The notes beneath the pieces were generated by a model. The model was not told the DNA's origin and searched no databases. It was given only the letters and a program-made list of their open reading frames with translations. The translations under genes and the position numbers were made by a program. DNA of 64,000 nt, from the NCBI GenBank assembly GCA_046563655.1, contig CM102289.1:10106001-10170000 (forward strand), in the 5' to 3' direction. This document shows, one piece after another, positions 7,707 to 53,382 of this stretch (within the stretch, counting starts at the first letter, position 1; each line of letters begins with the position of its first letter). The stretch comes from Yuukianura sp. NJ FZ-2021 (Eukaryota).

Positions 7707-13292
<5,586 letters not shown>

Positions 13293-13578
13293 TGTCACTA
13301 ACCAGCAACACATTAGTAAACAAACATTCAAATAATGACTAACATGGAAGCACTTTGACTATCCAGTTAGATACAAACAATGGGTTTACCTGAAGCGATC
13401 TAGTTGTGATGCTTTGAGATTAACTGGAACTCAATTAATCTTAGTACGACCCTTAATTAAATAACTTTAGATTCTCGTTTTTTGTTCTTGTGGCTGTAGA
13501 ATGAGGTGATTTTGGTTTGACTTCCCTTTTATATGAGGGCGAGAGGAGTTGGATTTACCCCTTGGAGGAGTTGGATCT

Positions 13579-13827
13579 TACTCCTCTCAAGTATTTATGT
13601 GAATCTCAACCCGGAGTGCGGATCCCGAGCGAACAAGCTGCTTTCACAACTTTTGTGTTTGTCAGTTCGTCTCAAGTCGAATCCAAGTCAAGTTGAGGCT
13701 AATGCTCGGAAAACAACGGAAACTGCTAGTGGTGCTATCCGATCATTAGGTACTACTACACTGGAACTTGAGACAGAAGAGGGGCGGGAACTCTTTTCAA
13801 AAATTCAAAAGTTAAAATTAAAACAAC
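13579..13827 (+). promoter_or_regulatory. Shared upstream element, copy A (upstream of the NRDE2-like gene, divergent from l(3)mbt)
   Basis: Collinear blocks TATTTATGTGAATCTC / GTGCGGA / GAACAAGCTGCTTT / ACAACTTTTG / GGCTAATGCTCGGA / CTTGAGACA / GCGGGAACTCTTTTCAAAAA are shared with 18544-18790. Confidence 0.7.
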
Positions 13828-13901
13828 TTTCAGTTCAGTTGTCAATTATTATAAAGTATTTAACTTTTGGTTTCCTGTAAGTAATTAGTTGATTAATCAA
13901 G

Positions 13902-15807
13902 AGGTCATCTGGTATTGTTTGGAGTGGAGAGTTTGAAGGACGATCATGGAGTTGGTGGAATATCGCCTTGATCAACTCATCATCTAAAGACAAAAGGTGA
14001 GGACCATTTCGCATTTTATTTCATTGGAATAGCGCCTTTTGTCATTTAGCACGTGGAGTTGGATAGACATTGGTTAGGTGAAGGTCAGTGGTCAAGGGAG
14101 GTAGGGTGGACATGAATTAATCACTTTGATTTGAATCGCAGTGCCTGGAATGGACAGAGGAGGTGGACTCAGAATGGAGTCATTTGGGGAACTGCTGGAC
14201 GCAGAAGCATCTCTCATTCCAATTGAGATATCACGGAGACAATGGAAGTGGCAAAACTCTCCCTCTCAGACACTTCCACTTTCTAGACTGAAGTGGACTA
14301 CTGGAGGAAAGGAACAGACTTGTACCACACAAATCCTAAAACTATGCAACTTCCAGAGGGATTCCAGTTGCCAGAGTACTCTCTTCCCTCTGCCCCCTCC
14401 ATCATGCCCACTGGAAAGAAGCTCAAAGTGGGAACTCCACTTCCAGACTCAGTTTTCAAGAGACAGGAGGAACTGCTGGAGGAAAACGCAACCAAGTTGC
14501 ATGGAATGATTCGATCCATCTTCACTCAGAGTCTGGACCACCTCAAACCAAACTTTCCTTCTCTCCTTTGACTGTGACGATTGCTGGGGACCGGAATTTG
14601 GGAAGTGGGATGGTGAACACTGCTTGGAGTACTTTGGGCAGAAGACTAATTTGATTGTGGAGTGGACAGTGGCCTACAGTCTCTTTGCATATCTGGTCCA
14701 GCACTCCCTGGATGCAGCCTCGGAGGTCATGACGAGAGTGATGGACAGACTGGAACAACTCCCGCCTTTCTCGGACCAACAAGTACTCCTCAATCCTCAA
14801 GTAAGCCAACATTTCCAACAATGTACTTTCAGTTTGTGCAAAGTAATGATTGTTTGTTTGTTTGGAACAGTGGACACAGGATTCGGGAGGAGCTGTTTGT
14901 GAGTTGGTCCAGACTAGGAGCCCTCCATGTGACGCTTCACCCAATGCAAAATGCCAAGTTGAGAACTGTGCTTGGAAAAGCCCTGGAACTCTACCCCTCC
15001 AGCCCCCCTCTCCTCCTTCTCTACATGAATGTCGAAGTACTTCAACTTTTTAACTTTGGTTGTGTTCAGTTGACTCATTTTGTTTGTTTTTGCAGAGTGA
15101 GTGCAGTGTGGTGGGGAAACTGTGGCGGTCCCTCGTCAAGACAGTCAAGGAACGGAATGCGAGTGACTTTTGCACTCTGGATTGGACTCCCGTCTTCATG
15201 GCCTACACTTTGTCCACACAAATGGAGGAGATTGAGGAGGAGTCGGCAGTGGCCCTGCATGAATTTGGAATTGGTAAGGATGGGAATGTTTTTGGAGGGA
15301 ATGTTCAAGTACTCATTGGTTTTTGTTCCAGGGGGACCAGCAGTGCCTCCGGATACCATTTTCTACAAAGTGGATGGGATTCTGAGTGGTGCTGAGAAGA
15401 GTGTGTTGAGTAGGCACTGTCCCTTGATCTGGAGACTTCATCTCAAGCACTTGGCCATGCGAGGGAAGGAGGGGAAGGACAGGAGGAGAGCAGAAGGACT
15501 TTTGTATGAAGCAATTCGACAGTGTCCCACGAGCAAGTCTCTGTACTTGGATGGAATCCTGTACTTTCCTCATCTGATGCACGAAGTGCTGGAACTCATG
15601 ACTCAAAATGAACTGCTCATCCGAATGCCACTCGAGGAACTCCATCTCCTCTCAAAGTTCAAGGGGAAGGAGGATGAGGAAGTGGCCGTTGTGGACACTT
15701 TGAAGTCCAAATCCAACGGAAGGAAAAACCTCAAGAAAAAGAAGAAGGGAGTGACAAAAAGAGGGAGCGAAGAGGATCTCGTTGCAGTAGAAATAGTTAG
15801 TGACTAA
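13902..15807 (+). pseudogene. NRDE2: NRDE2 (nuclear exosome regulator)-like copy, disrupted and probably internally deleted
   Basis: C-terminus HCPLIWRLHLKHL...LLYEAIRQCPTSKSLYLDGILYFPHLMHEVLELMTQNELLIRMPLEELHLL matches the NRDE2 C-terminal motif. The locus (~1.9 kb) is far too short for a full NRDE2, and the upstream frame has in-frame stops near 14224-14286. The 5' boundary is approximate. Confidence 0.7.
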
Positions 15808-16121
15808 CAAATTCGTATGTAATCCACATTACTACTACTTTTCGGTAGCTTAGGAAACTAAATTGTACTTTTATCTTATTAATTCCAAGGCATAAATGGA
15901 TAAAGGTTAGGATAACCCACAATCAATTATTAGTCAACAGCATTACTTCACCGAAAAAATGTTATGAAATACGGTAGTATTACCTTAAAAGTTAAACTAT
16001 ACCTTATGCTTGCTCAATTATAAATCATGGCAAGGTATTTAGTTGTGTAATTATGCTAAAAGCAATTAGTTGCGTAATTAAGATTAAATTGCGAATTACT
16101 TATCGCGCAATGAGTAACTAA

Positions 16122-17277
16122 TTACTGTGAATCACTCATAGTGTTGAGTTCACTTGCGATGTGTTCGTTGTCCTTGATCTTCCTCGTGACTTTTTTCTTG
16201 GCTGGTTTTCTGAGTTTGGGATTTGATTTCTTGATCCCTTGACTCTCCATGGACCGAATTCCCTGTTTCTCCAAGTACTCTTCCATTTTGATGTCGTCCA
16301 TCCCATCAACTGCCACACTGCGACATAACTTCTCAAATTCCTCGTCCACCTTCAGACGAACAGTCTTGTTCCGGAAAAACAACACTTTCTTCTTGTCCTC
16401 CCTTGTGATTGTGATTATCTCAGAATCCAGTGCCTGAAAACACGAAATTCAATTACTTGGGTTTTTACTTAAATTACGACTACTTCAATTTTCATTTGAG
16501 TAAGAGTGGACTCACTTTTAGAACTCGTTCTGCATGAGGCACAGACTCCAGCACATCTTCACGGAAAATTCCACCGAGGCCCTTCATGTCTTGCAGTCTG
16601 AGGAGTCTAAGCAGCGACTTTTTGTCCCGACATCGCAGTGGGGGCTGGAAAATGAACTTGTCGTCTTCATTTCGCTCAATCTTCGGATTATTCGGAAAGG
16701 CTGCCTGCATAAGCCACTAAGAGAATCACAAGTTTTACAAACTTCAAAAGCAAAGTACCGTCTGGATGCTAAAGGTCAACTTACGGCTTTAACTTGTTGC
16801 TCACATCCAGCTGATTGGTTTCATCCAGGATTTTGTCTACTGACAACGGAGAGTCCTCCCCTTCTTGCAACTTTCCTCTCAGATGCTTCACAATCTTGGT
16901 CAAAATCCCAAAACTTGTAGGCAGAATTGGGTCCACTCCAACTTTTAAAAGTGGGTGGAGGAGCAGAGCTAAAAACAGAAATCAATCAATTAACTAGTGA
17001 AACAACTGACTTAATCTTATGATGCACACTTCACTTACCCTGGTTTAGTTGCAATTGACCTCCTCTTCTCCTCTGGTATCTGGTTCATCCCTGCGTACCC
17101 TATTCTCTACCCTGTAAAAACAGAACCAATTAATTAACACTGTCTAAACTAAACGATTGCTCTAATTCTAATCGTCCATTACTCTTATCTTCAATTACTC
17201 TAATGATTTGCTTACGTGGGTGTTTCCTTGGCTCTCTTGAGGAACCGTTCTCTTTCTCCTCTCAGCTCTGGATCCAT
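16122..17277 (-). pseudogene. GTF2E2: General transcription factor IIE beta subunit, frameshifted copy
   Basis: MDPELRRERERFLKRAKETPT, YKF/GILTKIVKHL, ILDETNQLDV, WLMQAAFPNNPKIE and VDEEFEKLCRSVAVDGMDD. Apparent frameshifts at ~16913 (extra T) and ~16793, and a stop in the exon-2 frame. Confidence 0.8.
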
Positions 17278-17384
17278 AATTATCACTTGTGCAATACTAC
17301 AAGTTAATTATTAATTAACTTTAAACGATCACTCTCACTCTTCAAGTTTAGAATGAACTCTGCTTCACTAACTTCCACTTCTAA

Positions 17385-17550
17385 ATTTTGGATTTTGACT
17401 TTTGTTTTTTGAAAAGAGTTGGCGCACTTTGTGTCAAGTTCAAAGTTGAGCAATGTATAATGCTGAGATAACCATGTCAGCAGCTTCTGTTATTCTCCGA
17501 GGATTAGCTCTTCAGACGAAAGGACAAAACCAAAAGTTGTCGGAGCAGGA
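17385..17550 (-). promoter_or_regulatory. Shared upstream element, copy C (upstream of GTF2E2)
   Basis: The reverse complement reads ACAACTTTTGGTTTTGTC..GCTAATCCTCGGAGAATAACAGAAGCTGCTGACA..TTATCTCAGCATTA..CTTGACACAAAGTGCGCCAACTCTTTTCAAAAAACAAAAGTCAAAATC, matching copy B. Confidence 0.75.
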
Positions 17551-18543
17551 CTCTTTGTGTTTTGGTTTTCTGTGCACAGAATGGACTGCGCGTGTTTCAT
17601 CCTCGCTTGACAGTACAAAAATACTCAGGGCCGTGTGCTACTAAGTTACGGCCCATCTTCCGAATAATTATTAATAAAGAATAATTATTATTATTATTAA
17701 CATCATTCACTGTTAAGGACTTCAAATTACAGTTAAGCAAAATGAAATAATTACTACTAGTGTATTTCATGTCCCTTAACCACAAAAAAAAACTAATTCC
17801 AAGACAACTTCCATTTTTGCGTTTCAGCTATGGTTAAACAGTGGATTTTCTAATTTAAACCAAAACTACAAAGAAACTTTGTGAAAATAATGCAAAAACA
17901 GTAAAATTTGAAATGATGTTTAACTTTTAATTTGTTTGAACAAGCGAAAATGGATTTCGAATAACTTTTGTTTGTGGAATTGAAAAAAAACGAAACAGAA
18001 AAAAAGTGGAGTGAACTCCTGCACACTCTTCCTGTTCTCAGCAACTTTCTATGCTTTTCACACATAAAAAATTCACCTAACTTTTTCTGGCCAAGTGAAG
18101 TGATGATAGAAAATCATCATGAATGACTTTACACAAGAAAGTTCTGACCACTGTCGTTTTTCTTTCTTCACAAGAAACTTTCATACAAAAAGTACAAAGA
18201 AAGTTAGAGAAATCTAAGGATGTAGGAAAAGTGAAATTGGAAAGCTTGTTGTACTTTTATTTAGATTTGAGAAGCGAAACTGCATGGAGAAAGTTTGAGT
18301 TTGGTGTACAAAAACAAAAATAAAATTGAAGTTGAGTCAAGTCCAATAGATTCGGCCGGTCCTCCGGAACTTTCTCTGTTTTTCTCCATAAAATGTTTGA
18401 TTTTTGGGGGGTTTGGAGTTGGGATGGTCCCCACATGCATTTTTTCCGTTGCCACCTCACGCCCTTCACCACCCCCAACTCCAAAAGAGTAACACTGCTA
18501 CTCCTTTCGGCTTCATATAAAAGGGAAGCTCCACAAATTCTCT

Positions 18544-18790
18544 ACTGCTCTCAACTATTTATGTGAATCTCGTCCCGGGTGCGGACCGAGAGAGCGAACA
18601 AGCTGCTTTGACAACTTTTGTTTTTGTCATTTCAACCTGACTTGGATTGCGCAAGTCAGGTTGAAGGCTAATCCTCGGAGAGCAACAGAAGCTGCTGACA
18701 GCTTATCTTAGCATTAGACACTGCGGAACTTTACACTTGAGACAAAGTGCGGGAACTCTTTTCAAAAAACAAAAGTCAAAATCAAAACAA
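18544..18790 (+). promoter_or_regulatory. Shared upstream element, copy B (upstream of PPWD1)
   Basis: Same ordered blocks as copies A and C. CTCTTTTC at 18756-18763 is ~130 bp before ATG 18888. Perfect 14-bp hairpin at 18631-18665. Confidence 0.75.
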
Positions 18791-18887
18791 AATAGAAATT
18801 AGAAGTTTAACTTCAATTTAAAGTTAAGCCTGATTGATTAAAGTTAATCATTGACTAATTTGTCAATTAAGTTTCAGTTTTTAGAAG

Positions 18888-21483
18888 ATGTCTGTCAAGG
18901 AAACGAGTAGTACGGAGAACCCGAAGAGACAGCGGTTAGAAGACGACCAGTCCGAAGCAACAATCACCGCAGAAGGTCAAGTGACTGATGAAAATGTGAG
19001 TAAAGGTCAAGAGTCTTCAGACGATGAGTTCATTGGACCTCAGCCAGTCACTGAACAGGATCCACACAAATCGGAAAAAGTCAAGCGGAAGAAAGGTCAG
19101 TCAAACAATGATAACATTTCAAAACAAATCCTAAGTGTCCGATTTTATTTTCAGTTCTTGCCTATGATAAGTTATACCTCGATAACCTTCCAGCTTCCAG
19201 ATGCAGACTACTACGAAAAGAGTTTTATGCATCGAGAGCCATTGTCTCACATAGCAGTTACAAAGCAAGTCAAATACATCTCAATCCCAAGTCATTCAAG
19301 GTTCAATTTTTATTAATAATTTGTTGTTTTTTTCAGAACTGACTTCCTCATTACTGCCAGTTGTGATGGTCACATCAAGTTCTGGAAAAAACAGGAATTG
19401 GGCATACAGTTTGTCAAACACTTTTGACCTCACTTAGGAAATATCCAAGACATTTCAGTCAACTGCAACTCTACCGGGACTCAGCCTCAATTCCCAATGA
19501 CAAAAGCCTCAAGGTCTTCGATGTTGTCAACTTCGGTAAGTTTCACTTTTACAACTTAGATTTCATGAAATTACTAGCATGCTAATGAAAGGTTTGTTTT
19601 GTAGATATGATCAACACGTTCAAATTGGACTTTGTACCGCAAGCATGCGAATGGATCCATCGTTCTGGAGATGCAGTTGTGCTCTGGCAGTGTATGATTT
19701 AAAGTCATTGATTTTATTACAAATTACTAGCTAATTCAATTAATACTAACCTAATTAATTAATTTCAAATGTTTCTAACCCTGTTCTAGGTCTGATGCTG
19801 ACTCCAATCTGATTCACTTTTTTGACGGACACGGAGGGAAGGAACCTCTGCGCATTCAGGATAAAATCCATAGTCTACCAGTGACTATCATCAAGTACGC
19901 TCCAAAGTTAGACGCCGTCAACTCCGGAGATGTCCAGGGAATGGTTGAGTACTGGACATGATCCAAGACAGAATTTGCATTCCCAGCCAACCTTCACTTA
20001 CGTTCCAAACTGGACACGGACTTGTTTGAATTTGTCTCCAACAAGTTGAAAGTCTGTTGCTTGGCAATTTCACCAAACGAAAAGTACTTTGCTACTCTCC
20101 TGATCGAAGAGTAAGTATCTAAATCCCTATCTTAATTATCTTATCGTAGACTTATCCTAATTATCTTGTTATCTTAGACTTAACTTTGTGATTATCTCTC
20201 CAGGTCTGTCTGTTCCACCTTCTGACTGGGAAGTTAGTTCGAGTATTTGACGAAGACTTGCCGCAGATTCTTGAGAATCAAGCCAAGGCTCAGCTGATCC
20301 CGAACATGGAATTCGGAAGACGCATGGCTGTGGAACGGGATTCAGAAAACAACAACGTTTTAAAAGAGACGAACATGCTGTTTGCCGACAGTTCCAACTT
20401 CCTCCTCTACCCCACCGTCCTTGGCATCAAAGTGGTCAACATCGTCACCAACAAGTTGGAACGTCTCATTGGGAACTCAGAAAACCTTCGATTCCTGCGT
20501 CTCGCTCTCTTTCAAGGGAAACCCAAGAAGAACCTTGGAGTTCCCACACTGGAGATGGAGTTCAAAATCCAGCACTGGGCTCTGTTCTTCCAGACCCAAC
20601 TCTTTTCTGCACAGCCTACAAGAAGAATCGCTTCTATCTCTTCTCGAGATGGAAGCATGAGTGAACAAGGATGTGTTCAACGAAAAACCAACCAAAGAAG
20701 ATATCATCTCTGCCACAGACACAGCTGGTAAGATAACATGAAGTGGAAAAAGCATTTATCTCAGCTTATCCTAACTTTATCTCAGGTTTATCCTAACCTT
20801 ATCTTTCTTTTTGAAGCTACTAAGAAGATTTTCGAGACTGCTGTGATGCACACGACGAAGGGTGACATTCATATCAAGCTGTTCGTGAAGGAGTGTCCCA
20901 AATCAGCTGAGAATTTTTGTGTGCATAGGTTAGACCTAACCTGCATGCGAAGAATGGGTACTACAATGGGAACATCTTCGATCACGTCATCAACTCTAAT
21001 TCATGATCCAAACAGGAGACCCTTCAGGTTCTAACTAAAAACTAAAACTAAAGTTACTGAAACGGAATTTGACCTGTGACCTTGAACTTTTGTTTGTCGT
21101 AGGAATTGGAACTGGTGGTGGAGAGAGTATTTGGGGAGGGAGTTCGAAGACGAGTTTCATCCAAGTTTAAGACATGATCGACCGTACACGCTGAGCATGG
21201 CCAATGCCGGTCCAAACACAAATGGATCCCAGTTCTTCATCAACATCACACCCACCGTAAAGTTATACACATCCACTTTTTTCAATTTTTCCATTTTAAA
21301 CAAGCGAAGGTGACTGATTGGTTGTTTATTTTTGGCTTAGCTTTGGCTGGACAACAAGCACACTATCTTTGGCAGAGTGACACGCGGAATGGAGACTGTC
21401 CAGTCCATCTCCCTCGTAAGACTAACTCCAAGACAGACAAGCCCTGCGACGACGTCTCCATCATCAACATCTCTCTCAAATAA
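18888..21483 (+). pseudogene. PPWD1: Peptidylprolyl isomerase domain and WD repeat-containing protein 1, disrupted intron-containing copy
   Basis: [51 protein letters not shown] and [23 protein letters not shown]. In-frame TGA at 19425-19427 and 19959-19961, several frameshifts, and a 20-bp insertion at ~20927. Confidence 0.92.
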
Positions 21484-22839: not shown

Positions 22840-25800
22840 TTAACTTATGATGCCATCATACTAATGGACATTGGAATTTTTGAATTTCTTAACTTATGAT
22901 GTCTTCATACTAATGGAAATTAGAATTTTTGAATTTCTTAACTTATGTCTTCATACTAATGGAAATTAGAATTTTTGAATTTCTAAACTTATGATGTCTT
23001 CATACAAAATGGAAATTAGAATTTTTGAATTTCTTAACTTATGATGTATTCATACTAAATGGAAATTAGAATTTTTGAATTTCTTAACTTATGATGTTTT
23101 CATACTAAATGGAAATTAGAATTTTTGAATTTCTTAACTTATGATGTCTTCATACTAAATGGAAATTAGAATTTTTGAATTTCTTAACTTATGATGTCTT
23201 CATACACATCAAAATTGGAATTTTTGAATTTCTCAAGTTATGATGTCTTCATACAGATATTGGAATTTTTGAATTTCTCAAGTTGTGATGTCTTCATACA
23301 CATCAAAATTGGAATTTTTTAATTTCTCAACTTATGATGTCTTCATACACATCAAAATTGGAATTTTTTAATTTCTCAACTTATGATGTCTTCATACACA
23401 TCAAAATTGGAATTTTTTAATTTCTCAACTTATGATGTCTTCATACACATCAAAATTGAAATTTTTTAATTTCTCAACTTATGATGTCTTCATACACATC
23501 AAAATTGAAATTTTTTAATTTCTCAACTTATGATGTCTTCATACACATCAAAATTGAAATTTTTTAATTTCTCAACTTATGATGTCTTCATACACATCAA
23601 AATTGAAATTTTTTAATTTCTCAACTTATGATGTCTTCATACACATCAAAATTGAAATTTTTTAATTTCTCAACTTATGATGTCTTCATACACATCAAAA
23701 TTGAAATTTTTTAATTTCTCAACTTATGATGTCTTCATACACATCAAAATTGAAATTTTTTAATTTCTCAACTTATGATGTCTTCATACACATCAAAATT
23801 GGAATTTTTTAATATCTCAACTTATGATGTCTTCATACACATCAAAATTGGAATTTTTTAATATCTCAACTTATGATGTCTTCATACACATCAAAATTGG
23901 AATTTTTTAATATCTCAACTTATGATGTCTTCATACACATCAAAATTGGAATTTTTTAATTTCTCAACTTATGATGTCTTCATACACATCAAAATTGGAA
24001 TTTTTTAATTTCTCAACTTATGATGTCTTCATACACATCAAAATTGGAATTTTTTAATTTCTCAACTTATGATGTCTTCATACACATCAAAATTGGAATT
24101 TTTTAATTTCTCAACTTATGATGTCTTCATACACATCAAAATTGGAATTTTTTAATTTCTCAACTTATGATGTCTTCATACACATCAAAATTGGAATTTT
24201 TTAATTTCTCAACTTATGATGTCTTCACAGTGATGAAAATTGGAATTTTTTAATTTCTCAACTTATGATGTCTTCACAGTGATGAAAATTGGAATTTTTT
24301 AATTTCTCAACTTATGATGTCTTCACAGTGATGAAAATTGGAATTTTTTAATTTCTCAACTTATGATGTCTTCACAGTGATGAAAATTGGAATTTTTTAA
24401 TTTCTCAACTTATGATGTCTTCACACTGATGAAAATTGGAATTTTTTAATTTCTCAACTTATGATGTCTTCACAGTGATGAAAATTGGAATTTTTTAATT
24501 TCTCAACTTATGATGTCTTCACAGTGATGAAAATTGGAATTTTTTAATTTCTCAACTTATGATGTCTTCACAGTGATGAAAATTGGAATTTTTTAATTTC
24601 TCAACTTATGATGTCTTCACAGTGATGAAAATTGGAATTTTTTAATTTCTCAACTTATGATGTCTTCACAGTGATGAAAATTGGAATTTTTTAATTTCTC
24701 AACTTATGATGTCTTCACAGTGATGAAAATTGGAATTTTTTAATTTCTCAACTTATGATGTCTTCACAGTGATGAAAATTGGAATTTTTTAATTTCTCAA
24801 CTTATGATGTCTTCACAGTGATGAAAATTGGAATTTTTTAATTTCTCAACTTATGATGTCTTCACAGTGATGAAAATTGGAATTTTTTAATTTCTCAACT
24901 TATGATGTCTTCACAGTGATGAAAATTGGAATTTTTTAATTTCTCAACTTATGATGTCTTCACAGTGATGAAAATTGGAATTTTTTAATTTCTCAACTTA
25001 TGATGTCTTCACAGTGATGAAAATTGGAATTTTTTAATTTCTCAACTTATGATGTCTTCACAGTGATGAAAATTGGAATTTTTTAATTTCTCAACTTATG
25101 ATGTCTTCACAGTGATGAAAATTGGAATTTTTTAATTTCTCAACTTATGATGTCTTCACAGTGATGAAAATTGGAATTTTTTAATTTCTCAACTTATGAT
25201 GTCTTCACAGTGATGAAAATTGGAATTTTTTAATTTCTCAACTTATGATGTCTTCACAGTGATGAAAATTGGAATTTTTTAATTTCTCAACTTATGATGT
25301 CTTCACAGTGATGAAAATTGGAATTTTTTAATTTCTCAACTTATGATGTCTTCACAGTGATGAAAATTGGAATTTTTTAATTTCTCAACTTATGATGTCT
25401 TCACAGTGATGAAAATTGGAATTTTTTAATTTCTCAACTTATGATGTCTTCACAGTGATGAAAATTGGAATTTTTTAATTTCTCAACTTATGATGTCTTC
25501 ACAGTGATGAAAATTGGAATTTTTTAATTTCTCAACTTATGATGTCTTCACAGTGATGAAAATTGGAATTTTTTAATTTCTCAACTTATGATGTCTTCAC
25601 AGTGATGAAAATTGGAATTTTTTAATTTCTCAACTTATGATGTCTTCACAGTGATGAAAATTGGAATTTTTTAATTTCTCAACTTATGATGTCTTCACAG
25701 TGATGAAAATTGGAATTTTTTAATTTCTCAACTTATGATGTCTTCACAGTGATGAAAATTGGAATTTTTTAATTTCTCAACTTATGATGTCTTCACAGTG

Positions 25801-26917
25801 ATGAAAATTGGAATTTTTTAATTTCTCAACTTATGATGTCTTCACAGTGATGAAAATTGGAATTTTTTAATTTCTCAACTTATGATGTCTTCACAGTGAT
25901 GAAAATTGGAATTTTTTAATTTCTCAACTTATGATGTCTTCACAGTGATGAAAATTGGAATTTTTTAATTTCTCAACTTATGATGTCTTCACAGTGATGA
26001 AAATTGGAATTTTTTAATTTCTCAACTTATGATGTCTTCACAGTGATGAAAATTGGAATTTTTTAATTTCTCAACTTATGATGTCTTCACAGTGATGAAA
26101 ATTGGAATTTTTTAATTTCTCAACTTATGATGTCTTCACAGTGATGAAAATTGGAATTTTTTAATTTCTCAACTTATGATGTCTTCACAGTGATGAAAAT
26201 TGGAATTTTTTAATTTCTCAACTTATGATGTCTTCACAGTGATGAAAATTGGAATTTTTTAATTTCTCAACTTATGATGTCTTCACAGTGATGAAAATTG
26301 GAATTTTTTAATTTCTCAACTTATGATGTCTTCACAGTGATGAAAATTGGAATTTTTTAATTTCTCAACTTATGATGTCTTCACAGTGATGAAAATTGGA
26401 ATTTTTTAATTTCTCAACTTATGATGTCTTCACAGTGATGAAAATTGGAATTTTTTAATTTCTCAACTTATGATGTCTTCACAGTGATGAAAATTGGAAT
26501 TTTTTAATTTCTCAACTTATGATGTCTTCACAGTGATGAAAATTGGAATTTTTTAATTTCTCAACTTATGATGTCTTCACAGTGATGAAAATTGGAATTT
26601 TTTAATTTCTCAACTTATGATGTCTTCACAGTGATGAAAATTGGAATTTTTTAATTTCTCAACTTATGATGTCTTCACAGTGATGAAAATTGGAATTTTT
26701 TAATTTCTCAACTTATGATGTCTTCACAGTGATGAAAATTGGAATTTTTTAATTTCTCAACTTATGATGTCTTCACAGTGATGAAAATTGGAATTTTTTA
26801 ATTTCTCAACTTATGATGTCTTCACACTGATGAAAATTGGAAGTTCTGAATTTCTCAACTTATGATGTCTTCACACTGATGAAAATTGGAAGTTCTGAAT
26901 TTCTCAAGTTATGATGT
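22840..26917. repeat. 49-bp satellite array, ~83 units, in ordered variant blocks
   Basis: Unit AACTTATGATGTCTTCACAGTGATGAAAATTGGAATTTTTTAATTTCTC. Period 49 checked at 24241/24290. Confidence 0.97.
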
Positions 26918-26919
26918 TA

Positions 26920-27790
26920 GTTGCGACTCCAAACCCCTCAGTTTCAACTTAAAATGGAAGTCCATATAAGCCCTTCATTTCAACTCAAAATGGAAGTCTA
27001 AATTGGACCTAAAATGGGACTTCGAAATGGAAGCGACTCCAAACCCCTCAGTTTTAATTCAAAATTTAAGTTCAAGTAAGACTTAGCCCTTCATTTCAAC
27101 GTAAAATGAAAGTCAAAATGGGACTTCAAAATGGACGTCCAAAAGGGACTTCAAAATGGAAGTCGAAATGGGACTCCTAAAGGGGTTAGTTTCAACTCAA
27201 AATAGATTTCAAAATGGGACTCCAAAATGGACGTCCAATTAGGACTCCCAAAGGTGTTACTTTCAACTCAATACGGGATTCCAAAATGGAAGTCAAAATA
27301 AGACTCCAAAATGGAATTCAAAATAAGACTCCAAAATGGAACTCGAAATGGGACTCAGAAAGCTATTTCAACTCAAAATGGAAGTCCAATTGGGACTCCC
27401 AAATGGAAGTCCAAATGGGACTCCCAAATGGAAGTCCAAATGGGACTCCAAAATGGACGTCCAATTAGGACTCCCAAAGGGTTTATTTTTAACTCAAAAT
27501 CGGATTCCAAAATGGAAGTCAAAATGGGACTCCAAAATGGATGTCAAAATGGGACTCCAAAATGGATGTCAAAATGGGACTCCCAAAGCACTGTCCCAAT
27601 TTAAACTCCAAATGGAATCCTAAAGTCGACTCCCAATGCCCTCTCAATTTTATTCCCAAGTGGAAGTAGAAATTGGAGTCCGAAAGCACTGTCCCAATTT
27701 CAAACAAAATGAAGTCCAAATGGGACTTCAAAACGGAAGTCCAAATGGGACTCCAAACGTCTCAGTTTCAACTTAAAATGGAGGTCGAAA
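26920..27790. repeat. AAAATGGGACTCC / AAAATGGAAGTC (12-13-bp subunit) degenerate tandem repeat, copy 1
   Basis: Many alternating subunits; homologous to 45760-46680. Confidence 0.85.
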
Positions 27791-28020
27791 TAGGTGAAAA
27801 TAAATTTTTTAATTTTTAAATTTTTGGAAAAAAGTTTTTCTTTTAAGGTAATTACATACTGTAATGGAAGAATTAAATTTTTGAAAAAGTTTCTCTCTTA
27901 AGGTGATTACATACTCTGAGAATTATATTTTTGAAAAAGATTCCTTTTAAGGTGGTTACATACTGTGAGAATAAAATTTTTGAAAATGTTTCTTTCTTAA
28001 GGTGACTACATTCTCTGAGT
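27790..28020. repeat. ~50-bp minisatellite TTAAGGTGATTACATACT.TGAGAATAAAATTTTTGAAAA, 4-5 units (also at 46690-46950)
   Basis: TTAAGGTRRTTACAT recurs at ~27843, 27898, 27946 and 27997. Confidence 0.75.
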
Positions 28021-28432
28021 ATTAAACCTACGTTGCACCTATGTCTTAAACCTATGTCTACGTTTCACCAGGAAGGTCGATGGACTGGACGTGCAAATTT
28101 CGACTCAGAATACTGCGCACATCTTGAGTGAATGTCAAGGCGTCTAATACTTTAAGAAGGATGAGGAGGGTGGTAGCATCTGTGAACCAGGATTTGACCA
28201 GCATTGCAATGGCTACAGGCACAAACCACTAGTTAGTTAAATAGTCATTTGGACTGAATCAGCTGTTGAGGTTAAGTTAGCCGGGTAAGAGCGATAAGCT
28301 CCTGGTGAGTTGTCCAGAATAAATATGGAGTTGAGACCATTGGAAATGATGGACAGATCCTTCGAGGAGGAACCCAAGTGAAGAGTGCAGTGTTGTCGCT
28401 AGTATCTCGTCTCCAGGCTGGAGAATCTCCAG

Positions 28433-30827
28433 ATTTAGGTTTCGAATCGGTTTCAGTGTCATTGCCTTTGCTTCCTTTTTTTACTTTCTTCACCGCCAGC
28501 ATTCTCAGACTGTTCGCTGTTCTCTCCGTTGTTAGGCCCCGTTTGTGCTGGAATCTCCACTCCCTGTAAAATGAAATGTTTCCAATCTAATTCAAATGCA
28601 AAATCCCGCTTATTTCAAAATTAACCTGAAAATAACTTGCTAAAAGCTGATCCCAATTTAGACAGGGTATCCTCTTCTGGAGCAGCAACTGTTTCCAGTG
28701 TGGCGTTCTTCTTTAAAACAGATTCTACTAGTAGAGTGAGACTGATGATTCCATTTCCGTCCAAATTGTAATGTGCTTTGACGCCTTTCACTTCAATACC
28801 ATCGCCAATATTTTAACACCTTTCAGATTCACTTTGGTAATGTTAGGAGTCTCGGTGGCACTAAAAACAACAAAAATGGAAATCAGCTGATACTTAAATT
28901 AACAAATTAAAAGTAAATCTTACTTGGCTTCGTGTGCTGGAACTTGCAACTCGCCGTAGCTGACGTAGAAACTGAAATCGTCTACATGCTTGTTGAATGT
29001 TCATATCTTCTTCTGTGGATAAGGATTCATGTAAGAAAAGAGAGTTCGGCGAACAATCTTGACTGGCCGGGCGGCTCCATCTTCTCCGTCCAGTTCCCGC
29101 TCAAAATGGACCTGCAAAAGAAACATTTCATTTGATGACTAATTTCAGTGATTTGTTTTAAAAACTTACCAAAATGGGAAAGAGAACATCTTTGGTCAAA
29201 AACGTTTTGACTTTGAATCCAGATCTGAGATCAGCTGCTTTGTAAGCGCTAAACGGCGCCCATCACTGCAGCCTCGTCCGTGTTCAGACTCTTTTCTAAT
29301 CCTCGTTTCAAAACTTCAGTCAGTTTTTCCTGAACTTTTGGAATACACGTTCCAGCTCCAACTAAAATGACTTGGTCAATGAGTTCCCTTGTAATTCCAG
29401 CAGCTGTTAACGCTTGTTCAACTGGATAGTTGACACGTTCGGCGAGATCTGCACATAAACTCAAACTCGGCACGGGAAACGGGAGTTTTGAAGTCTTGCT
29501 CATCCAAATCACCTTCAACCTGTAATCAAAAAGTCAGCACATTTCAAACATCTTTTCAAAGTTTAGTTCTTTCGAAGTGTTTTCATATTTTCGTGGTTGA
29601 ATCATTCAAATGGTGACTTTAGCCTGCATGTAAAAGGAACCGAAGCGCATTCTATTACTTTTTCAGTTTGAACGGAATAACAAGTAAGGAAAAAGTTGCG
29701 GTTCGAAAATACTACAAAAGTAGTAAAAAAAATGAAGTAGAAACGTATAAAAAAAATTTTACCTGAGCGTAGTGATCAGCGTTAGCACTCAAAACGTTTT
29801 TGAGTCCTCCGGCTTCCTTGAACAATTTGGCCAGGGCATGGTGGTTAGTAAAAACATTAGTTTTGGTCTTCTTCAGGTCATTGAAAGCCTTGCCCAGAAA
29901 ATCCCTCAGCCGAAGTTGCATTTCCAGACCACATAGCGAATGATCGTATCTGACACCAAGTGAATCAGCTGATCAACTTATTTCTGAAAACATGATGTTC
30001 GATGTGTAATTTCAAATTCTAGACTTACCCAACACCAAGAATTGTCAACTGTGGATTAGTTTCAACTACTCCCTTCTCCTTACTTTTCGTCATCTGATAG
30101 CTGATTACAGTAGCCACTGTACTGGATGCTCACATGTCATACGAGGTGCTGGGAGTCTCGTTGAAGTCTTTTCGACAAAAAATACAATAGTTCAAAGCAC
30201 CTAACAACATTCAAGTGTATTAAAAACGACATTCCGACGAATAAAATTATCAAAATTCAAATATTTTGTGAGATATTACTGACCGTGGTTGCGTTTATGA
30301 GCTGAAGAACATTGATATCCGCCCATTCGGATGCGTGCAGAACTGCTCGTCTTTCGGCTTGGTTGAAATAAGGTGGAACGGTGATGAATGCTTCCTTGAC
30401 CGGTTGACTAGCAAAATCCTGAGCACAGTCACGCGCTTGGCTTAGAATCATTCCAAGGAGTTCCTCAGATGAATAAAATAATAAAAAGGTTCACTACAAA
30501 CAGATAAATCAGTAATATCATCAATCAGCTGTTATCGATTTAGGTTACGGTACCTGTCATGTTGAAAAAGAACTGTCCCTGAACCGTGAACCGTGGGACA
30601 GTGTCCCACGGTCAGGATCAGGAACTAAGTTGTAGTAAGGAAATCTCTTTTTGATAAAGCTCTACAATTGGATTATCAATCTTCTTTACCAAGAGATCCA
30701 AGAAGTAAACGTAAGCATTGGATGGGAAACGAACTACTACGTTCAGTGCATCGTCTCCAATGAGCCGCTCATTGTCACGGAACGATACGGTAACTGGTGT
30801 TTTCCGCTTTGACTTGGGCACTCCAGG
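28433..30827 (-). pseudogene. HYOU1: Hypoxia up-regulated protein 1 (GRP170, ER Hsp70-like) fragment, copy 1; 5'- and 3'-truncated, introns retained
   Basis: [95 protein letters not shown] and DTLSKLGSAFSKLFSG. No signal-peptide exon; stops and frameshifts. Confidence 0.92.
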
Positions 30828-30912
30828 CTATAATAAAACGTATTAAGAGTCCAGCATCCTCCTCCCCTTGTCCACTTCATCCGCAACTCCTGGTTTCAAA
30901 TTCACAACTTAA

Positions 30913-32138
30913 ATGGGATTTAGAAACTTCAATTAAGATCTCTTACCCGATTTTTGGATTGTGTTTCCTGGGATTCGTTACTGTAGTGCATTTGGGAAAG
31001 AGTTTCTTCACATTCTCTCTAGTCACATCTGCATGAATGTTCGTCACGTAGAGACAAAATGGGTCAATGTGCTCAGGGTTATTCGTCACACGCGTGTCAC
31101 TGTCCAGTTTCTCCTCCACCTTAGAATAAAAACAAAGTTAGATAACTATCAACCCAAGCAAGAGAATAAAGATACTTGGAGGTTTTAGAATGAACTGGAA
31201 ATGTTTACTTACGGTGATATTTGAACCAGCGAATTTGACTTTCTTCAACGCCTCCACTCCCTTCTGGACGTCTGCGTCGTGCTTGAAGATGACGAGAAAC
31301 TGTCTGGGTTCGACAGATTTGGCAACGACTGCAGTTTCGATGCCGCCATGCCACGCCTTCACAATTTGCTCTGTGATGGGAGGGTCATGCACTTTGATCA
31401 AGTACACATGACCACCATGACCAGCTCCTGCTCCGCCTTCATTCCTCGCTCGCAGGCTCCAGCCGGTCTTGGATTAGAACCCAATTTCTAAACACAGTCA
31501 CAAGTTTACCAATTGGGAAGAAAGGTAGTGGAGAAGCGTGGATTACTTACGTTAGTCAAGCGTTGGAATCGGCTCTTCTTCTGGGCTTTCTTGTGAATGT
31601 TCTTACTCTGCGCAGACACTTTATTCAATCCTCCATTGGCTTGATCTTTCTTCTGGAACTTATGCTTTGGCTGTTGCGTGGCTGGAGCTTTCGGTGGCGA
31701 TGTGCCTTTCGTCACTTCCAACTTCTTTGCACCCACTGGTGGAGGAGCCACTTTCTTGTTCAAATTCTGAGGTTGAGTCTTGTGATTGTCATGCTTCTGT
31801 TGCTGTTTCGGAGGATCTCCACCTACAGCCAAAAAACAGTTTTTAGAAAAGTTGATTCCAGATATCTGAAAGCAATTAACTGGTTACCTTTGCCTTGTGG
31901 CTGCTTGGGACTTTGTTGACAACCGAAGGACTTGTTTCCTCCGAATTTATTGGGACGCTGACCTTGAGGTCCTCCAGGGGATTTACCTTGTTGGTTTTTC
32001 GGAAATTTGGATGGGTATTGTTTCCCCCAACGGACTGCAAACACAAAACACAATCTTCAAGTCATAATTAAGTCAAGACTTAAGTAAGGAAGGAAAAATA
32101 GGAAGACTTACCTTTCGTTTCTCGGCTGCCATGATCAT
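30913..32138 (-). pseudogene. 5' fragment of a K/Q-rich RRM (nucleolin-like) gene, copy 1, truncated in an intron after the start of RRM2
   Basis: Exons MAAEKRK, PKNQQGKSPGG, VYLIKVHDPP...FLVIFKHDADVQKGVEALKKVKFAGSNITV and DPFCLYVTNIHADVTRENVKKLFP. Confidence 0.7.
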
Positions 32139-32334
32139 GTTCCCTTCAACTATTCAGTACTTCCTACCAGGAAACAACTTGTGGATTAAGCAATGAAGAG
32201 ACGGTGACCTTTAAGTTGGACGACGTCGAGGTCAACGTAATGACAACTGGATGAGCGACTACTGCTGACAAGGAGGAATTCAAAGTGAATCTGAGAACAG
32301 GGACTTCCACTTCACAGAGGAGTAACAAATAACT

Positions 32335-32510
32335 CCACTGGTCCTATTTATAACTTTTTCTTTTCTGAGTGCGGACCGCCCGTGTAACAAAAATTCCGCC
32401 ATAAAGTCACTATCGGAGGCTAATACTCGGAAAAGAGTAGAAACTGCAGATAGAGTTATCTGATTCTTAGACACTCCTATGTTTTGTCTTGAGACAAAGT
32501 GCGGGAACCT
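32335..32510 (+). promoter_or_regulatory. Shared upstream element, diverged copy D, in a bidirectional intergenic region
   Basis: TATTTAT..GAGTGCGGACC..GGCTAATACTCGGAAAA..GAAACTGC..TTATCTGA..TTAGACACT..CTTGAGACAAAGTGCGGGAAC occur in the same order as in copies A-C. Confidence 0.65.
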
Positions 32511-32793
32511 AATTTAAATAGTAGTTTAAGTTGTTAGATTTAACAAATCTACAATTCACAATTCGATTACAAGAAAACAATTACTAAATTAATTAGTAAT
32601 CAAGAATAATTATCTGTTGCTTTGCTTCAGTTTGAATAACAACTTGTGCAACTGTTGTTATTCACTTAATCTGGACCTGGAGGATTAGTGGAGGAAGGCT
32701 CATCTCCAATCAACTAAACGGTAACAATGTAACTTAAAAGGGAATCAGTTTTTACATGTGTTTTTATATCCTTAGGTCAGTTGGTTGTTAACG

Positions 32794-33306
32794 ATGAGTG
32801 ACTCGGACGACACTGACTTGGAGAACTTACGACAACTGGCCCTCAGCAGTCTCCTCAAGAACAACTTCCCTCCCACTTCAGACGAGTGCTGTGAGTGTTT
32901 CCCTTTCCACTTAGTACTTTTCAATCATCACAGTGTTTCTTTTGTTTTGTATTAGGTCTTTTACCGTTCAAACTCCAACCTCATCTCAATTCAACCGGTG
33001 GAGAACTCCAAAACAAGAATGAGGATGATGGACCCACAGAAGAGGAGGATGACAACGGACAGAGTGACGACAGGAGCAGTGGAAGCGAATATGCGGTTGT
33101 CGGTAATTGTCACAACCAATGAAGCTAAAGGAACTGGACGTTGTTATGAATTTGTCGCTGGCTGTTGTGTTTTTCTAGAAGAGGGACTTTCTGTTTCATA
33201 TGGTGATGTGGACCAAGTGATTGAGGAAGTTGTTGTGTCGGAGGGTGAGAACATGAACATGACAAGTCCAGAGGAAGAAGAGGCTGAAGATGCCGCCGTC
33301 AGTTAG
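32794..33306 (+). pseudogene. 5' exons of an unidentified acidic/low-complexity protein gene (MSDSDDTDLENLRQLALSSL...), copy 1
   Basis: ATG at 32794, GT-AG-bounded exons, ends abruptly at a junction with GOSR2. The ATG is ATT in copy 2. Confidence 0.5.
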
Positions 33307-33365
33307 CCATGCTTCTTTCGACGAGATTCACTTAGGAGTGCATTAGGAGTAACCTAATGTCAGAC

Positions 33366-33760
33366 TGAGAAGATTTGCTCAGTCGTCGATTCACGCCAAA
33401 TGACAACACGAGTATCAACATTGACTATTCCATCCAGCATCACAGTTCTCTCCAGGTTAGCTCATAACATCATAAACTACAAATCCCGCAATGCCAAATA
33501 AAATGTCACTTTACCAGAACGCCCACCGTGGAATCGATGACATGCTGTCGCTGGGGTACCAAATACTTGGGAATTTGCGTGATCAGGAGTCCATCCTGAA
33601 GCAAACGAAGACAAGGATTCTAAACTTTAACAAACACACTGGGACTAACACCGTGATGCAGTTCATAGAACGCCGTGCATACCAAGACAAGTTGGTTCTC
33701 TACGGTGGGATGCTTCTCACACTGACCATCATCTTTTTCATTTGCATGTACTTTCTCTAG
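33366..33760 (+). pseudogene. GOSR2: Golgi SNARE GOSR2/membrin 3' fragment (last 1.5 exons), copy 1
   Basis: EDLLSRRFTPNDNTSINIDYSIQHHSSLQ|NAHRGIDDML..GYQILGNLRDQ..NTVMQFIERRAYQDK plus a C-terminal TM helix. Confidence 0.85.
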
Positions 33761-33968
33761 ACCTTTCTCCCAACCTCATCTGTGATTCATGTCCCTAACT
33801 TCTAAGCTTATTAAATCATATCGTCCGTTTTCCTAAAATACGAGAGGATCTACCGGAGAGAAGAAGTGATTAGAATTAGTTGGATATTTCGTTTTAATCA
33901 AAGATACCTCGCCATGCCATCCACTGAAGTTTAATGGAAACTAGTGTTTAATTAGTAATTGAAGTACA

Positions 33969-34484
33969 CTATGGTCCAGCGGGGGCATGAGGGGCAGAGG
34001 TTCTTATGATGTCAGAGTCACCAGGATCCGTGATGGAGAGGGTGCAGACTCGGAAGTACTTTCCACAGGCAGTCCCTAGCTCAATGTTCTTTCCAGTGTA
34101 GTGGTGGACTCCAGTCTTGGCCAACATTCCGTAGTACTCAATCTCTCACTTTCTAAAGACAGAGGAAGAGAAACACGACAGTCAAGTGCTGCGTCCCAAC
34201 ATCCATCAGCAGCACACCATTTGTAAATTGGGAGAGAGGAGTGACTTACCTGAGTGGCGGAGTGTTGTTGGCGATGATGATGAGTTTGACCTTGTCATGT
34301 CTCAGTCACTTGATGGCCTGTTTGTAGCCTAGCACAACTTTTCCTGACTTCATCACAAGGGCCAGTCGGGAGTTGATGCTCTCCGCACTCTTTTTCTAAA
34401 AAACAATCAAAACATGGTAAATGCACAACTGGAGGGAAGCAGCATGTGACATGGTCTCTTTACCTGTTTTTTTGAAGCAACCAT
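33969..34484 (-). pseudogene. RPL30: 60S ribosomal protein L30, three exons, premature stops, copy 1
   Basis: [78 protein letters not shown]; pyrimidine TCT/TOP tract upstream at ~34505-34516. Confidence 0.93.
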
Positions 34485-34537
34485 TTTGAAGTTTCTGGAT
34501 TTGATGAAAGAAAGGACTTGTTAAGGGACCTGGACAG

Positions 34538-35285
34538 TAGACTGGCCGGGAAAACCAATGTTTTTTTTTCTCGGAACGCAGTCCCCGCTAAAACGATAGT
34601 TATAATATAGAAAAAATTCAGTAAAAATTTTGGCCCGATTGGTCAACGTTTAGGGGTCGCGCAGGGCACTGGAAGTTTTACGTAAATGTGGGTAAGAGGT
34701 CAAATTTTGACTGCGCATGACCTCACCCGAGTAGTACCTCGTTCGAACCGTCTTGACCTACTGATTCCAAAAATATATAAATGTTGACCATTATGACCTC
34801 CCGTTGACCTGCGGACGGGGAGTGGGGGGTTAGGGTGGGGGTGCATGATCAGGGCGCTGCGCATGACCCTACCCGAGTAGCACTTCATTCGAACCGCCTT
34901 GACCTACTGATTCAAAAAATATATAAATGTTGACCCCTATGACCTTCCGTTGACCTGCTGGGTCAAAATGATCATGATTATGCACCCCATCCCAACCCCC
35001 CTCCCCGTCCGGAGGTCAACGGGAGGTCATAATGGTCAACATTTATATATTTTTGGAATCAGTATGTCAAGGCGGTTCGAATGAGGTGCTACTCGGGTGG
35101 GGTCATGCGCAGTCAAAATTTGACCTCTTACCCACATTTACGTAAAACTTCCAGTGCCCTGCGCGACCCCTAAACGTTGACCAATCGGGCCAAAATTTTT
35201 ACTGAATTTTTTCTATATTATAACTATCGTTTTAGCGGGGACTGCGTTCCGAGAAAAAAAAAACTTGGATTTGCCGGCCAGTCTA
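34538..35285. mobile_element. Non-autonomous hAT-type fold-back element (748 bp) with 8-bp TSD
   Basis: TIR TAGACTGGCCGG/CCGGCCAGTCTA, ~300-bp near-perfect inverted arms, TSD CTGGACAG at 34530-34537 and 35286-35293. The empty site is present in copy 2 (~53428-53435). Confidence 0.93.
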
Positions 35286-36669
35286 CTGGACAGCAATAGG
35301 ATACGAATGAAACCATTTGAATGCTTCATGAGTCGGTAGTTACTCGTAAGAATGAATTACTGCTTACCTAGTAAATCGATGACCACCGACCAGTAGACCA
35401 GTAACACCGAAACACGTTTCTTCCTTGTTACTCGCAAAGAACGAAATGCACAAATGATGGACAGAGACCGTATCCTCCTCCCCTTGTCCACTTCATCCGA
35501 AACTCCTGTTTTCAAATTCACAACTTAATTAACTTTATCCTACTTACAAATTCCACTCTAAATCCGACTTTAATTTTGAATAAACATACCTGCACCGTAG
35601 ATGTCCATTGAGGCAGTGAACATGACCAACTCCAACTATTTGGAAACCTACGCAAAGGAATTCATTTGTTATCATGCATGTTGTCTTTTATGCATTAAAA
35701 CTTACGACATCCAGGAAGTAGTCGACGTGTGGTCGTTTGTGGACAAAAAACCGAACTGGATGCCGCTCAATCGTTACTTTGAGTATAAAGTCCGGAGGTG
35801 TCTCTGGCTTAACGCTTTCCCTAACCAAAGTAGAGATTAATGGAGATGACAATTAAAGGTACGAGTTCCAGACATTACCTTTGAATTGCATCGTGACGAG
35901 AATGGATGAGTGTTTAGTCCACATCCAGTGCAAGTACTTTCCTCCGAACAGCTGACAGCCTGTGTTTGGATAAAGGCGACAATGGAATCTCCTCAGACTT
36001 GACTGTCTCATGCTGAATAATCTAAAAACAATGGAAATAGAGGAGTCAATTAAACAATGTGTTTGGATTTGGTTCATTTTGGTGCCTTACCTTTTCTTGC
36101 GTTCTTCTTCATGAAGTAGGTGAGGCAGTTCCAAATCCTGTTAAAAGTATGAGATGTCTAATGGCCACTTCCGCATATTTCCATATCGCAACGTCAATCT
36201 CCAGAAGAAAGGACGATACGTGTGGAAGTCCAATCAAACGTTGGTCCTTGGATGGAGTGTGGATCTGGAAATAGAAGAGTCCAAACTATGAGAATAATCG
36301 ATGACCAAATGACTGGATTCCAGTCAACTACTTTTACTTGACTTTAATTGTGTTGTTCCTTACCTTAATCTTTCACAAATAGTTGATCCAGCTTCAATTC
36401 GTAGTTGTGCTGGTCGTAGATTAACTAAAACTCAGTTTAATTGGTTTAATTAATTAGTTAATCGTGAACTTTGCACTATTAAGGAAGAAATCAACAAAAC
36501 AACTTAAATCTTTAATTTTTAAAAGTAAATCAGCTGGCGCATGCGCGCACTCGGAATAACAAAATTGAAAATTTTGAGTAGAGGTCGGCGCCTCGCACTC
36601 CATAGCCACAAAAACTGCAAAGTACCCTTAATTAAATTAATTACTTGATTACTCTTTAATTAAAGCATA

Positions 36670-43900: not shown

Positions 43901-43910
43901 TCCCAAAACC
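37985..43910. repeat. 48-bp satellite (six 8-bp subunits), ~120 units, copy 1
   Basis: Unit AAAATCCG AAAATCCT AAAACACT AAAAACCT AAAGAGCA AAATTCCC; period 48 at 38881/38929; 40-bp variants lack one 8-mer. Confidence 0.97.
38109..38382. mobile_element. 274-bp MITE inserted near the start of the 48-bp satellite, copy 1
   Basis: 17-bp perfect TIR TAGGGGTCAACCATTTC / GAAATGGTTGACCCCTA; TSD not resolvable within the satellite. Confidence 0.88.
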
Positions 43911-49730: not shown

Positions 49731-49815
49731 CTATAATAAAACGTATTAAGAGTCCAGCATCCTCCTCCCCTTGTCCACTTCATCCGCAACTCCTGTTTTC
49801 AAATTCACAACTTAA

Positions 49816-51242: not shown

Positions 51243-51420
51243 CCACTGGTCTTATTTATAACTTTTTCTTTTCTGAGTGCGGACCACGCGTGTAACAAAA
51301 ATTCCGCCATAAAGTCACTATCGGAGGCTAATACTCGGAAAAGAGTAGAAACTGCAGATAGAGTTATCTGATTCTTAGACACTCCTATGTTTTGTACTTG
51401 ACACAAAGTGCGGGAACCTA
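51243..51420 (+). promoter_or_regulatory. Shared upstream element, copy D' (duplicate of D)
   Basis: Near-identical to 32335-32510. Confidence 0.65.
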
Positions 51421-51692
51421 ATTTAAATAGTTTAAGTTGTTAGATTTAACAAATCTACAATTCGATTACAAGAAAACAATTACTAAATTAATTAGTAATG
51501 AAGAATAATTATCTGTTGCTTTGCTTCAGTTTGAATAACAACTTGTGCAACTGTTGTTATTCACTTGATCTGGACCTGGAGGATTAGTGGAGGAAGACTC
51601 GTCTCCAATCAACTAAACGGTAACAATGTAACTTAAAAGGGAATCAGTTTTTACATGTGTTTTTATATCCTTAGGTCAATTGGTTGTTAGCG

Positions 51693-52202: not shown

Positions 52203-52261
52203 CCATGCTTCTTTCGACGAGATTCACTTAGGAGTGCATTAGGAGTAACCTAATGTCAGAC

Positions 52262-52867: not shown

Positions 52868-53382
<515 letters not shown>

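Follow-up and report, generated by a model that had tools for sequence, protein, structure and literature searches.

Near one end of contig C7 (CM102289.1) of the springtail Yuukianura sp. NJ FZ-2021 (assembly GCA_046563655.1), copies of one short repeat stand directly ahead of unrelated genes. The 64,000-nucleotide stretch analysed (C7:10,106,001-10,170,000, hereafter the window) lies 17 kb from the contig end bearing TTAGG repeats and holds five copies, labelled A to E. We find that the repeat is a short, non-coding fold-back of about 150-190 bp with inverted repeats, and that it belongs to an old, sparse, genome-wide family whose young copies crowd the chromosome ends and a few interior clusters. 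The unit is probably a working, self-contained bidirectional housekeeping promoter, copied through the genome as a family.

A previous, sequence-only reading of the window had described the element as a lineage-specific portable core promoter, possibly a domesticated transposable element. As a prediction, the portable-promoter part of that description is supported, because the arms of the unit run into gene starts, the unit precedes the only found loci of five genes, conservation is block-wise with fixed spacings, and the non-coding RNA alternative fails. The description as a whole stands in part: it had missed the fold-back and two-way form, the E2F-type site followed after 4 nt by a hexamer of the CHR (cell-cycle genes homology region) type, the concentration at chromosome ends, and the fact that the window genes are dead.

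Anatomy of the fold-back unit

Run on the window, a profile made from genome copies marked five loci and no others (E values from 5e-33 to 5e-27), against a best score of E = 0.66 in five shuffles of the first 22 kb; all five align in the block order described earlier. The opposite strand of each copy matches the profile as well, meaning that the unit is an inverted repeat and that the former statement of no visible terminal inverted repeat was wrong. The full unit is a mirror-symmetric fold-back of ~150 bp. At its centre is an inverted pair of 16-bp half-sites (CTAAT-n-CTC-n-GA-w-AAC and its mirror) separated by a short loop, this core spanning 49-51 bp in 43 of 45 cases. Outward from the core, each side carries TGAGAC, an E2F-type site, a 4-nt spacer and a CHR-type hexamer.

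The spacing of these blocks is tightly kept. ATTAG and TGAGAC are 19-20 bp apart in 50 of 56 arms, and 5-6 bp separate TGAGAC from the E2F-type site (the two blocks used as anchors for the arm set) in 53 of 60. In 43 of 66 distinct arms a TTYRAA hexamer follows the E2F-type octamer at a distance of exactly 4 nt; in 8 it comes one base earlier, in 1 one base later, and at the other registers tested it never occurs. The in-register hexamer itself varies (TTCAAA in 21 arms, TTTGAA in 17, TTTAAA in 5). The 4-nt spacer is overlapped by a TCT-like or initiator (Inr)-like motif, depending on the copy. Among 65 distinct arms, strict TCT motifs occur in 16 (including A, B and C), loose ones in 5 and Inr-like ones in 14, the other 30 falling in neither class. 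The TCT initiator proposed for the final block is read in A, B and C as a candidate motif and is only one of the variants in the family. Site rates of 0.2-0.4 in the blocks and about 2 in the spacers bear out the observation that the spacers diverge more, and diverged copies in chromosome interiors retain both blocks and spacings.

The outer part of each arm has the layout of the composite sites of DREAM, the E2F/CLE (CHR-like element) and CDE (cell cycle-dependent element)/CHR pairs. In these, according to the available part of the source, an E2F-type site in either orientation is followed, after a 4-nt spacer, by TTTGAA, TTTAAA or a reverse complement (PMC5716687); in the unit, it is TTSSCGC in either orientation that precedes the CHR-type hexamer in the 43 arms just mentioned. 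The composites described there are about 18 bp long and belong to mammalian cell-cycle genes, whereas the predicted site is one block of a 150-bp mirror repeat at general housekeeping genes. The genome has a LIN54-type gene (two TCR domains at one locus) and three E2F_TDP loci, and we lean slightly towards the outer composite being read by E2F/DP together with LIN54 (DREAM/MuvB). The central half-site pair would be held by a DNA-binding protein.

There is about an even chance that polymerase II starts in the 4-nt spacer, at the TCT or Inr-like motif of each copy. In the portion of the literature at hand, TCT (YYC+1TTTYY) is rare and found mainly at ribosomal-protein genes, and a single T-to-A change turns it into Inr (TCA+1GTY) (PMC5580651). 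Both are known as 7-bp motifs; the unit family shows both forms in one register, as candidate starts read from sequence only.

Within the palindrome, fixed positions pair and variable ones do not co-vary: at the latter, pairing was kept in 4 of 33 cases (2.7 when shuffled) and in 7 of 33 (7.3), and one position never pairs. This fits protein recognition rather than a hairpin. Rfam gave no match at E values up to 1 in window positions 13000-19000, and RNAalifold predicted zero pairs. A family of structured non-coding RNAs or DNA hairpins, for which the earlier reading had proposed a covariation check and which the self-pairing capacity of a fold-back might suggest, is thus scarcely credible.

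Beyond the unit proper, an AT-rich leader motif follows 41 of 61 arms, compared with 9% of random windows, and a TATA + Inr add-on module lies beside many copies in either orientation. The units before LTV1 and POLR2J (C3:15,223,008-15,223,268 and 15,252,085-15,252,364) contain an extra inverted core copy and thus three half-sites.

Distribution of the family and the genes behind it

Each of the eight large contigs carries members of the family. The copy numbers given here are minimum values from patterns, BLAST and a profile run on less than 1 Mb of DNA: the profile marks at least 76 loci in the DNA examined, and BLAST with copy C gave 42 matches. The core pattern, which was derived from terminal copies that are not independent of one another, had 42 matches (control 0), of which 38 lie within 300 kb of large-contig ends, a zone holding 5% of the DNA. 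One of the remaining four is interior and one lies on a small contig; the other two, at C3:3.40 Mb, were rejected as chance matches in coding sequence. A less strict pattern for the arm found 74 distinct sites across 98.7 Mb, 34 of them terminal; the control gave 7. Pattern searches miss diverged copies; 11 of 13 further sites match the profile at E below 0.004, most with a core sequence outside the pattern. With a short E2F-hexamer pattern, 7 of 20 sites proved to be family members, and the other 13, which had no family match, were discarded. In 192 kb of random interior DNA there were zero family matches. A search of public metagenomes with a pattern that matches 48 of 149 own loci gave nothing, a weak test given that animal DNA is scarce there and near records were perhaps excluded.

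Units cluster in the interior at C1:3.91-3.98 Mb, C5:2.19-2.31 Mb, C2:8.64-8.66 Mb and C6:4.21-4.23 Mb, with no long TTAGG array in the parts examined. The C5 cluster has gene fragments in common with chromosome ends; it may once have been an end itself, or may mark an inversion breakpoint.

The arms are clearly oriented with respect to genes. When the two longest reading frames per strand within 1.3 kb of 61 non-redundant arms (122 sense, 120 antisense) were compared with Pfam, the sense strand gave matches for 34 arms and the antisense strand for 4. In the 13 cases measured, 130-370 nt separate the spacer from the ATG. For the final block, a distance of ~130-140 bp had been reported, and we count 130 nt from the TCT C of copy C to the PPWD1 ATG and 139 nt from that of copy B to the GTF2E2 ATG. 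Two-armed copies sit between divergent genes whose 5' ends face away from them within about 1 kb, with Pfam matches on both sides at C1:3.914 Mb, C1:3.970 Mb, C3:15.237 Mb, C5:2.288 Mb and C4:16.3 kb.

Most genes behind the unit are housekeeping genes, such as POLR2J, TAF9, CWC15, CSTF1, LTV1 and those for arginyl-tRNA synthetase, mitoribosomal proteins, a V-ATPase subunit, metaxin and a Rab protein. Judged by eye from six-frame translations, nine are intact, with no stop or frameshift: POLR2J, CWC15, MRPL23, an ATP6V0B-like gene, CSTF1, a RAD51 paralogue, TAF9 and two that we take from their translations to be NDUFA9 and ENOPH1. LTV1 and MRPS22 are open across the part read. Family searches of the genome found no second locus for POLR2J, CWC15, MRPS22, TAF9 or LTV1, meaning that the unit stands directly ahead of the only found loci of these five genes. 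A second POLR2J candidate was dismissed, as it reads as POLR1D.

Several observations weigh against the promoter reading. As many as 23 of the 66 arms miss the exact CHR register, and RPB11, CWC15 and LTV1 have TTCCAA there. The conservation of TGAGAC and of the E2F-type block is partly built in through their use as anchors, and the conserved registers are not independent events, because the copies share descent. By the gamma shape of the rate distribution, the unit (1.44) could not be told apart from the adjacent repeat U (1.95), and a cruder orientation test based on splice signals was weak (28 vs 15, p = 0.07). The genes are general housekeeping genes, unlike the cell-cycle genes typical of mammalian E2F/CHR control; intactness was a judgement by eye; and many genes behind the unit are dead, including those behind all five window copies. 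Finally, no intact PPWD1 or GTF2E2, the latter an essential gene, was found in the assembly, which leaves these genes without an intact parent.

Of PPWD1 there are three copies in the genome, with two stops common to all three; the best named matches of a PPWD1 exon are in Allacma and Orchesella. For GTF2E2, the assembly has only broken or partial copies, and a DMAP1-like copy behind a unit is cut off. Public DNA contigs hold GTF2E2 variants that are absent from the six assembly copies compared, so the assembly probably lacks one copy. No intact-looking PPWD1 was listed among public DNA contigs at 82% likeness or more. The missing intact genes point either to an assembly gap or, for PPWD1, to true loss.

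Spread, origin and competing explanations

One RAD51-paralogue leader is shared by two forms of the unit, following the one-armed form in the window and the two-armed form on C4, and a block made of copy B, repeat U and copy C recurs on C7, C1, C8 and C2 with different end genes. Sequence shared between copies extends a varying distance into the leaders, with a maximum of about 100 nt for B and C, and the unit ends fade over 25-100 nt, with no sharp termini. In 12 two-armed copies the longest flanking direct repeat averaged 6.25 nt, as against 6.32 nt for mismatched pairs; a target-site duplication is thus not detectable above control, as the earlier reading had stated, although old copies could have lost theirs. 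A 7-of-9 repeat beside the B-C block was rejected as such a duplication, for the same letters recur in other leaders. The leader swaps, the varying extents and the lack both of a target-site duplication and of a large pool of copies away from promoters make the recent spread look like DNA-level duplication with ectopic recombination. The old dispersal of the unit may have occurred by fold-back transposition.

The question of origin was raised already by the suggestion of a domesticated transposable element, which is a possible reading. An old miniature inverted-repeat transposable element (MITE) that inserted at promoters and was co-opted, an origin compatible with promoter function, is a substantial possibility, if short of an even one. 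The unit is short and non-coding, one two-armed copy has 48-nt arms that are 88% complementary, the copies are dispersed over all large contigs, and the inverted half-sites would resemble transposase binding sites. There is also precedent for E2F sites carried by MITEs (PMC5950925, as far as the available text goes). Against this origin stand the missing target-site duplication, the fading ends, the unequal sharing of leaders, and arms that are barely more alike within a copy (0.67) than between copies (0.65). No partner transposase turned up, although none was specifically searched for, and the random interior DNA revealed no non-promoter pool. We have not filed the unit as a MITE because neither a target-site duplication nor a high copy number away from genes, two of the defining features, was found.

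Descent itself may be questioned. Flies are known to have short housekeeping motifs that keep a fixed spacing, and the older copies might be convergent rather than homologous, products of a lineage-specific promoter grammar in which four binding sites stand at set distances; duplication would then relate only the copies at chromosome ends. Between interior copies the spacers can indeed hardly be aligned, and several interior sites have only one arm and one half-site. For a general grammar, however, the 74 arm-pattern sites are rare, and full mirror symmetry with a common loop and tail sequence is easier to obtain by descent; we regard convergence as unlikely. Much less probable still is that the unit drives nothing and is a dead passenger of subtelomeric duplication, carried along beside captured gene fragments. 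The broken genes behind the five window copies and the excess of core-pattern matches near contig ends are what a passenger would give, but not the single-locus genes, the 34 to 4 orientation, or the blocks and spacings kept in diverged interior copies.

Shielding of genes in repeat-rich ends, as a chromatin boundary or insulator, could instead be the main job of the unit, in keeping with E2F/CHR-type sites at divergent gene pairs, with the concentration in such ends and with such activity of dREAM together with CP190 and BEAF-32 at divergently paired Drosophila genes (PMC4132727, in the part available). The strictness of the orientation and the single register of the TCT/Inr-like motifs fit initiation, and duplication alone also explains the terminal excess; this role therefore seems improbable as the main one. 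The Drosophila case resembles ours in that E2F/dREAM sites are enriched between head-to-head genes in a hexapod, but those sites are not reported, in that same part of the paper, as a homologous repeat family.

The closest known system appears to be the CERP2/CELE2 elements, MITE-derived germline promoters of Caenorhabditis (Carelli et al., bioRxiv 10.1101/2022.01.21.477252). As far as the accessible part of that report goes, these too are a lineage-restricted family of short inverted repeats with motif pairs at fixed spacing, often divergent, placed at the promoters of many unrelated genes. They differ in being annotated MITEs with thousands of non-promoter copies, shown activity and a known factor, HIM-17. 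The unit has about a hundred copies, most of them facing gene starts and clustered at chromosome ends, each arm carrying an E2F/CHR-type composite and a candidate start motif, and is at most a putative transposon derivative. In Brassicaceae, MITEs amplified E2F sites (Henaff 2014, as cited in PMC5950925) and so likewise form a repeat family spreading E2F motifs; they are of high copy number and, in the available account, have no reported CHR or initiator and are not described as complete two-way promoters of essential genes. Our literature search, of partial coverage, found no report of such a unit in springtails.

If the unit is a housekeeping promoter, the old dispersal would have left diverged copies in chromosome interiors, and recent duplication with ectopic recombination near the ends would keep making fusions of unit and gene. 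Most new fusions would die, like PPWD1, GTF2E2 and the chimeras of the window, while some would now be a gene's only found locus. A more speculative extension, which we consider doubtful, is that of a landing pad: housekeeping genes copied to the recombination-prone chromosome ends would be expressed once fused to an arm of this self-sufficient two-way promoter and could then replace the original, so that POLR2J, CWC15, LTV1 and MRPS22 would have moved under one DREAM-type element, leaving behind broken trial copies such as those of the window.

Repeat-derived promoters are already known. The present family, if the promoter reading is true, would give a clear example from nature of essential genes whose promoters have been replaced, here the only found copies of those for a subunit each of RNA polymerase II and TFIID, for a spliceosome factor and for a mitoribosomal protein. 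With it come about a hundred naturally occurring versions of a single promoter, in which candidate starts of the TCT and Inr types and differing E2F/CHR sites share one register; questions on two-way initiation and on DREAM at housekeeping genes can thereby be put directly to the test. A compact two-way promoter would also be a possible tool for a poorly studied hexapod group.

Copies in the window and their surroundings

The window copies (Table 1) are the younger, one-armed form, in which the second arm, the ACAACTTTTG block of the sequence-only reading, has decayed; upstream of them lie add-on blocks, the TATA module and the 1-kb repeat U.

Table 1. Positions, within the window, of the unit copies and adjoining features.
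Feature	Position	Strand	Basis or detail
TATA + Inr add-on upstream of copy A, facing a minus-strand MBT-repeat gene	13499..13533	-	Sequence reading; TATA box 13526-13533, Inr-like hexamer 13499-13504, 31 nt downstream
Copy A, one-armed: 5' add-on blocks, core, outer arm	13586..13831	+	nhmmer, 211 bits, both strands match; mirror-arm relic about 13647-13680
Copy A core, two inverted half-sites around a short loop	13699..13749	.	
Copy A arm end	13784..13801	+	E2F-type 13784-13791, spacer 13792-13795, CHR-type hexamer 13796-13801; TCT motif in spacer, C at 13793; TGAGAC 13769-13774
Chimeric dead gene: RAD51-paralogue leader and first codons, second fragment, HAT-repeat (NRDE2-like) 3' part	13850..15807	+	
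GTF2E2 (TFIIE-beta) copy, two frame-shifting insertions	16122..17277	-	Translation; weak Pfam TFIIE_beta match
Copy B	17386..17595	-	Core 17457-17507, E2F-type site from 17425, CHR-type hexamer 17413-17408
Separate repeat U, about 1 kb	17700..18545	+	Terminal TATA box 18516-18523
Copy C	18550..18797	+	Core 18668-18717, TGAGAC 18738-18743, E2F-type 18749-18756, spacer 18757-18760, CHR-type hexamer 18761-18766
PPWD1 copy, in-frame stops and frameshifts	18888..21483	+	
Copy D: core and arm kept, tail diverged	32341..32522	+	E2F-type site from 32501, CHR-type hexamer in register
Copy E: duplicate of D within a 7-kb segmental duplication	51250..51430	+	

Copy A had been placed before NRDE2. The start behind it is instead that of a RAD51 paralogue, 95% identical to an intact copy at C4:15.2-16.3 kb (Pfam Rad51, E = 2e-28), fused to other fragments; the HAT/TPR-like sequence that we take to be NRDE2 is a 3' fragment further downstream. 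The genes behind B and C are GTF2E2 and PPWD1, as named before, but both copies are broken, and the two GTF2E2 insertions are absent from most public DNA contigs. Taken together, B and C form 85-nt arms, 87% complementary and 1.2 kb apart. D and E, formerly counted as separate cases, are not independent, since both lie in one segmental duplication (27507-34537 vs 46397-53435, 94%). Behind D, a gene start is joined to the 3' fragment of a v-SNARE gene, in line with a Pfam V-SNARE_C match at a paralogous locus.

The gene facing the TATA (-31)/Inr pair of the add-on module, presumably an MBT-repeat gene from our by-eye translation, is apparently intact; its 3' part is unique in the assembly and its 5' part is duplicated at several ends. 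A DNA search with repeat U gave 93 matches, many abutting the fold-back unit and others alone. Public DNA contigs show raised depth at 18383-18573. Repeat U occurs at dozens of loci; at C5:0.99-1.00 Mb and C1:0.45 Mb its copies stand in tandem and the fold-back unit is absent, and a 5'-truncated copy interrupts a DMAP1-like gene on C4.

The rest of the window is rich in repeats. A second pair of large direct segmental duplications (35286-43908/53428-62395) accompanies that of D and E; both pairs, 92-94% identical, hold patchworks of gene fragments. At the junction of duplicated blocks, 34547-35287 holds a ~740-bp inverted repeat that looks perfect and is GC-rich at its centre; it may be a fold-back element or a repair scar. 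Two satellite arrays next to the chromosome end (22840-26917, 38382-43908 and 56520-64000) have units of about 98 bp and of about 48 bp, the latter with higher-order variants.

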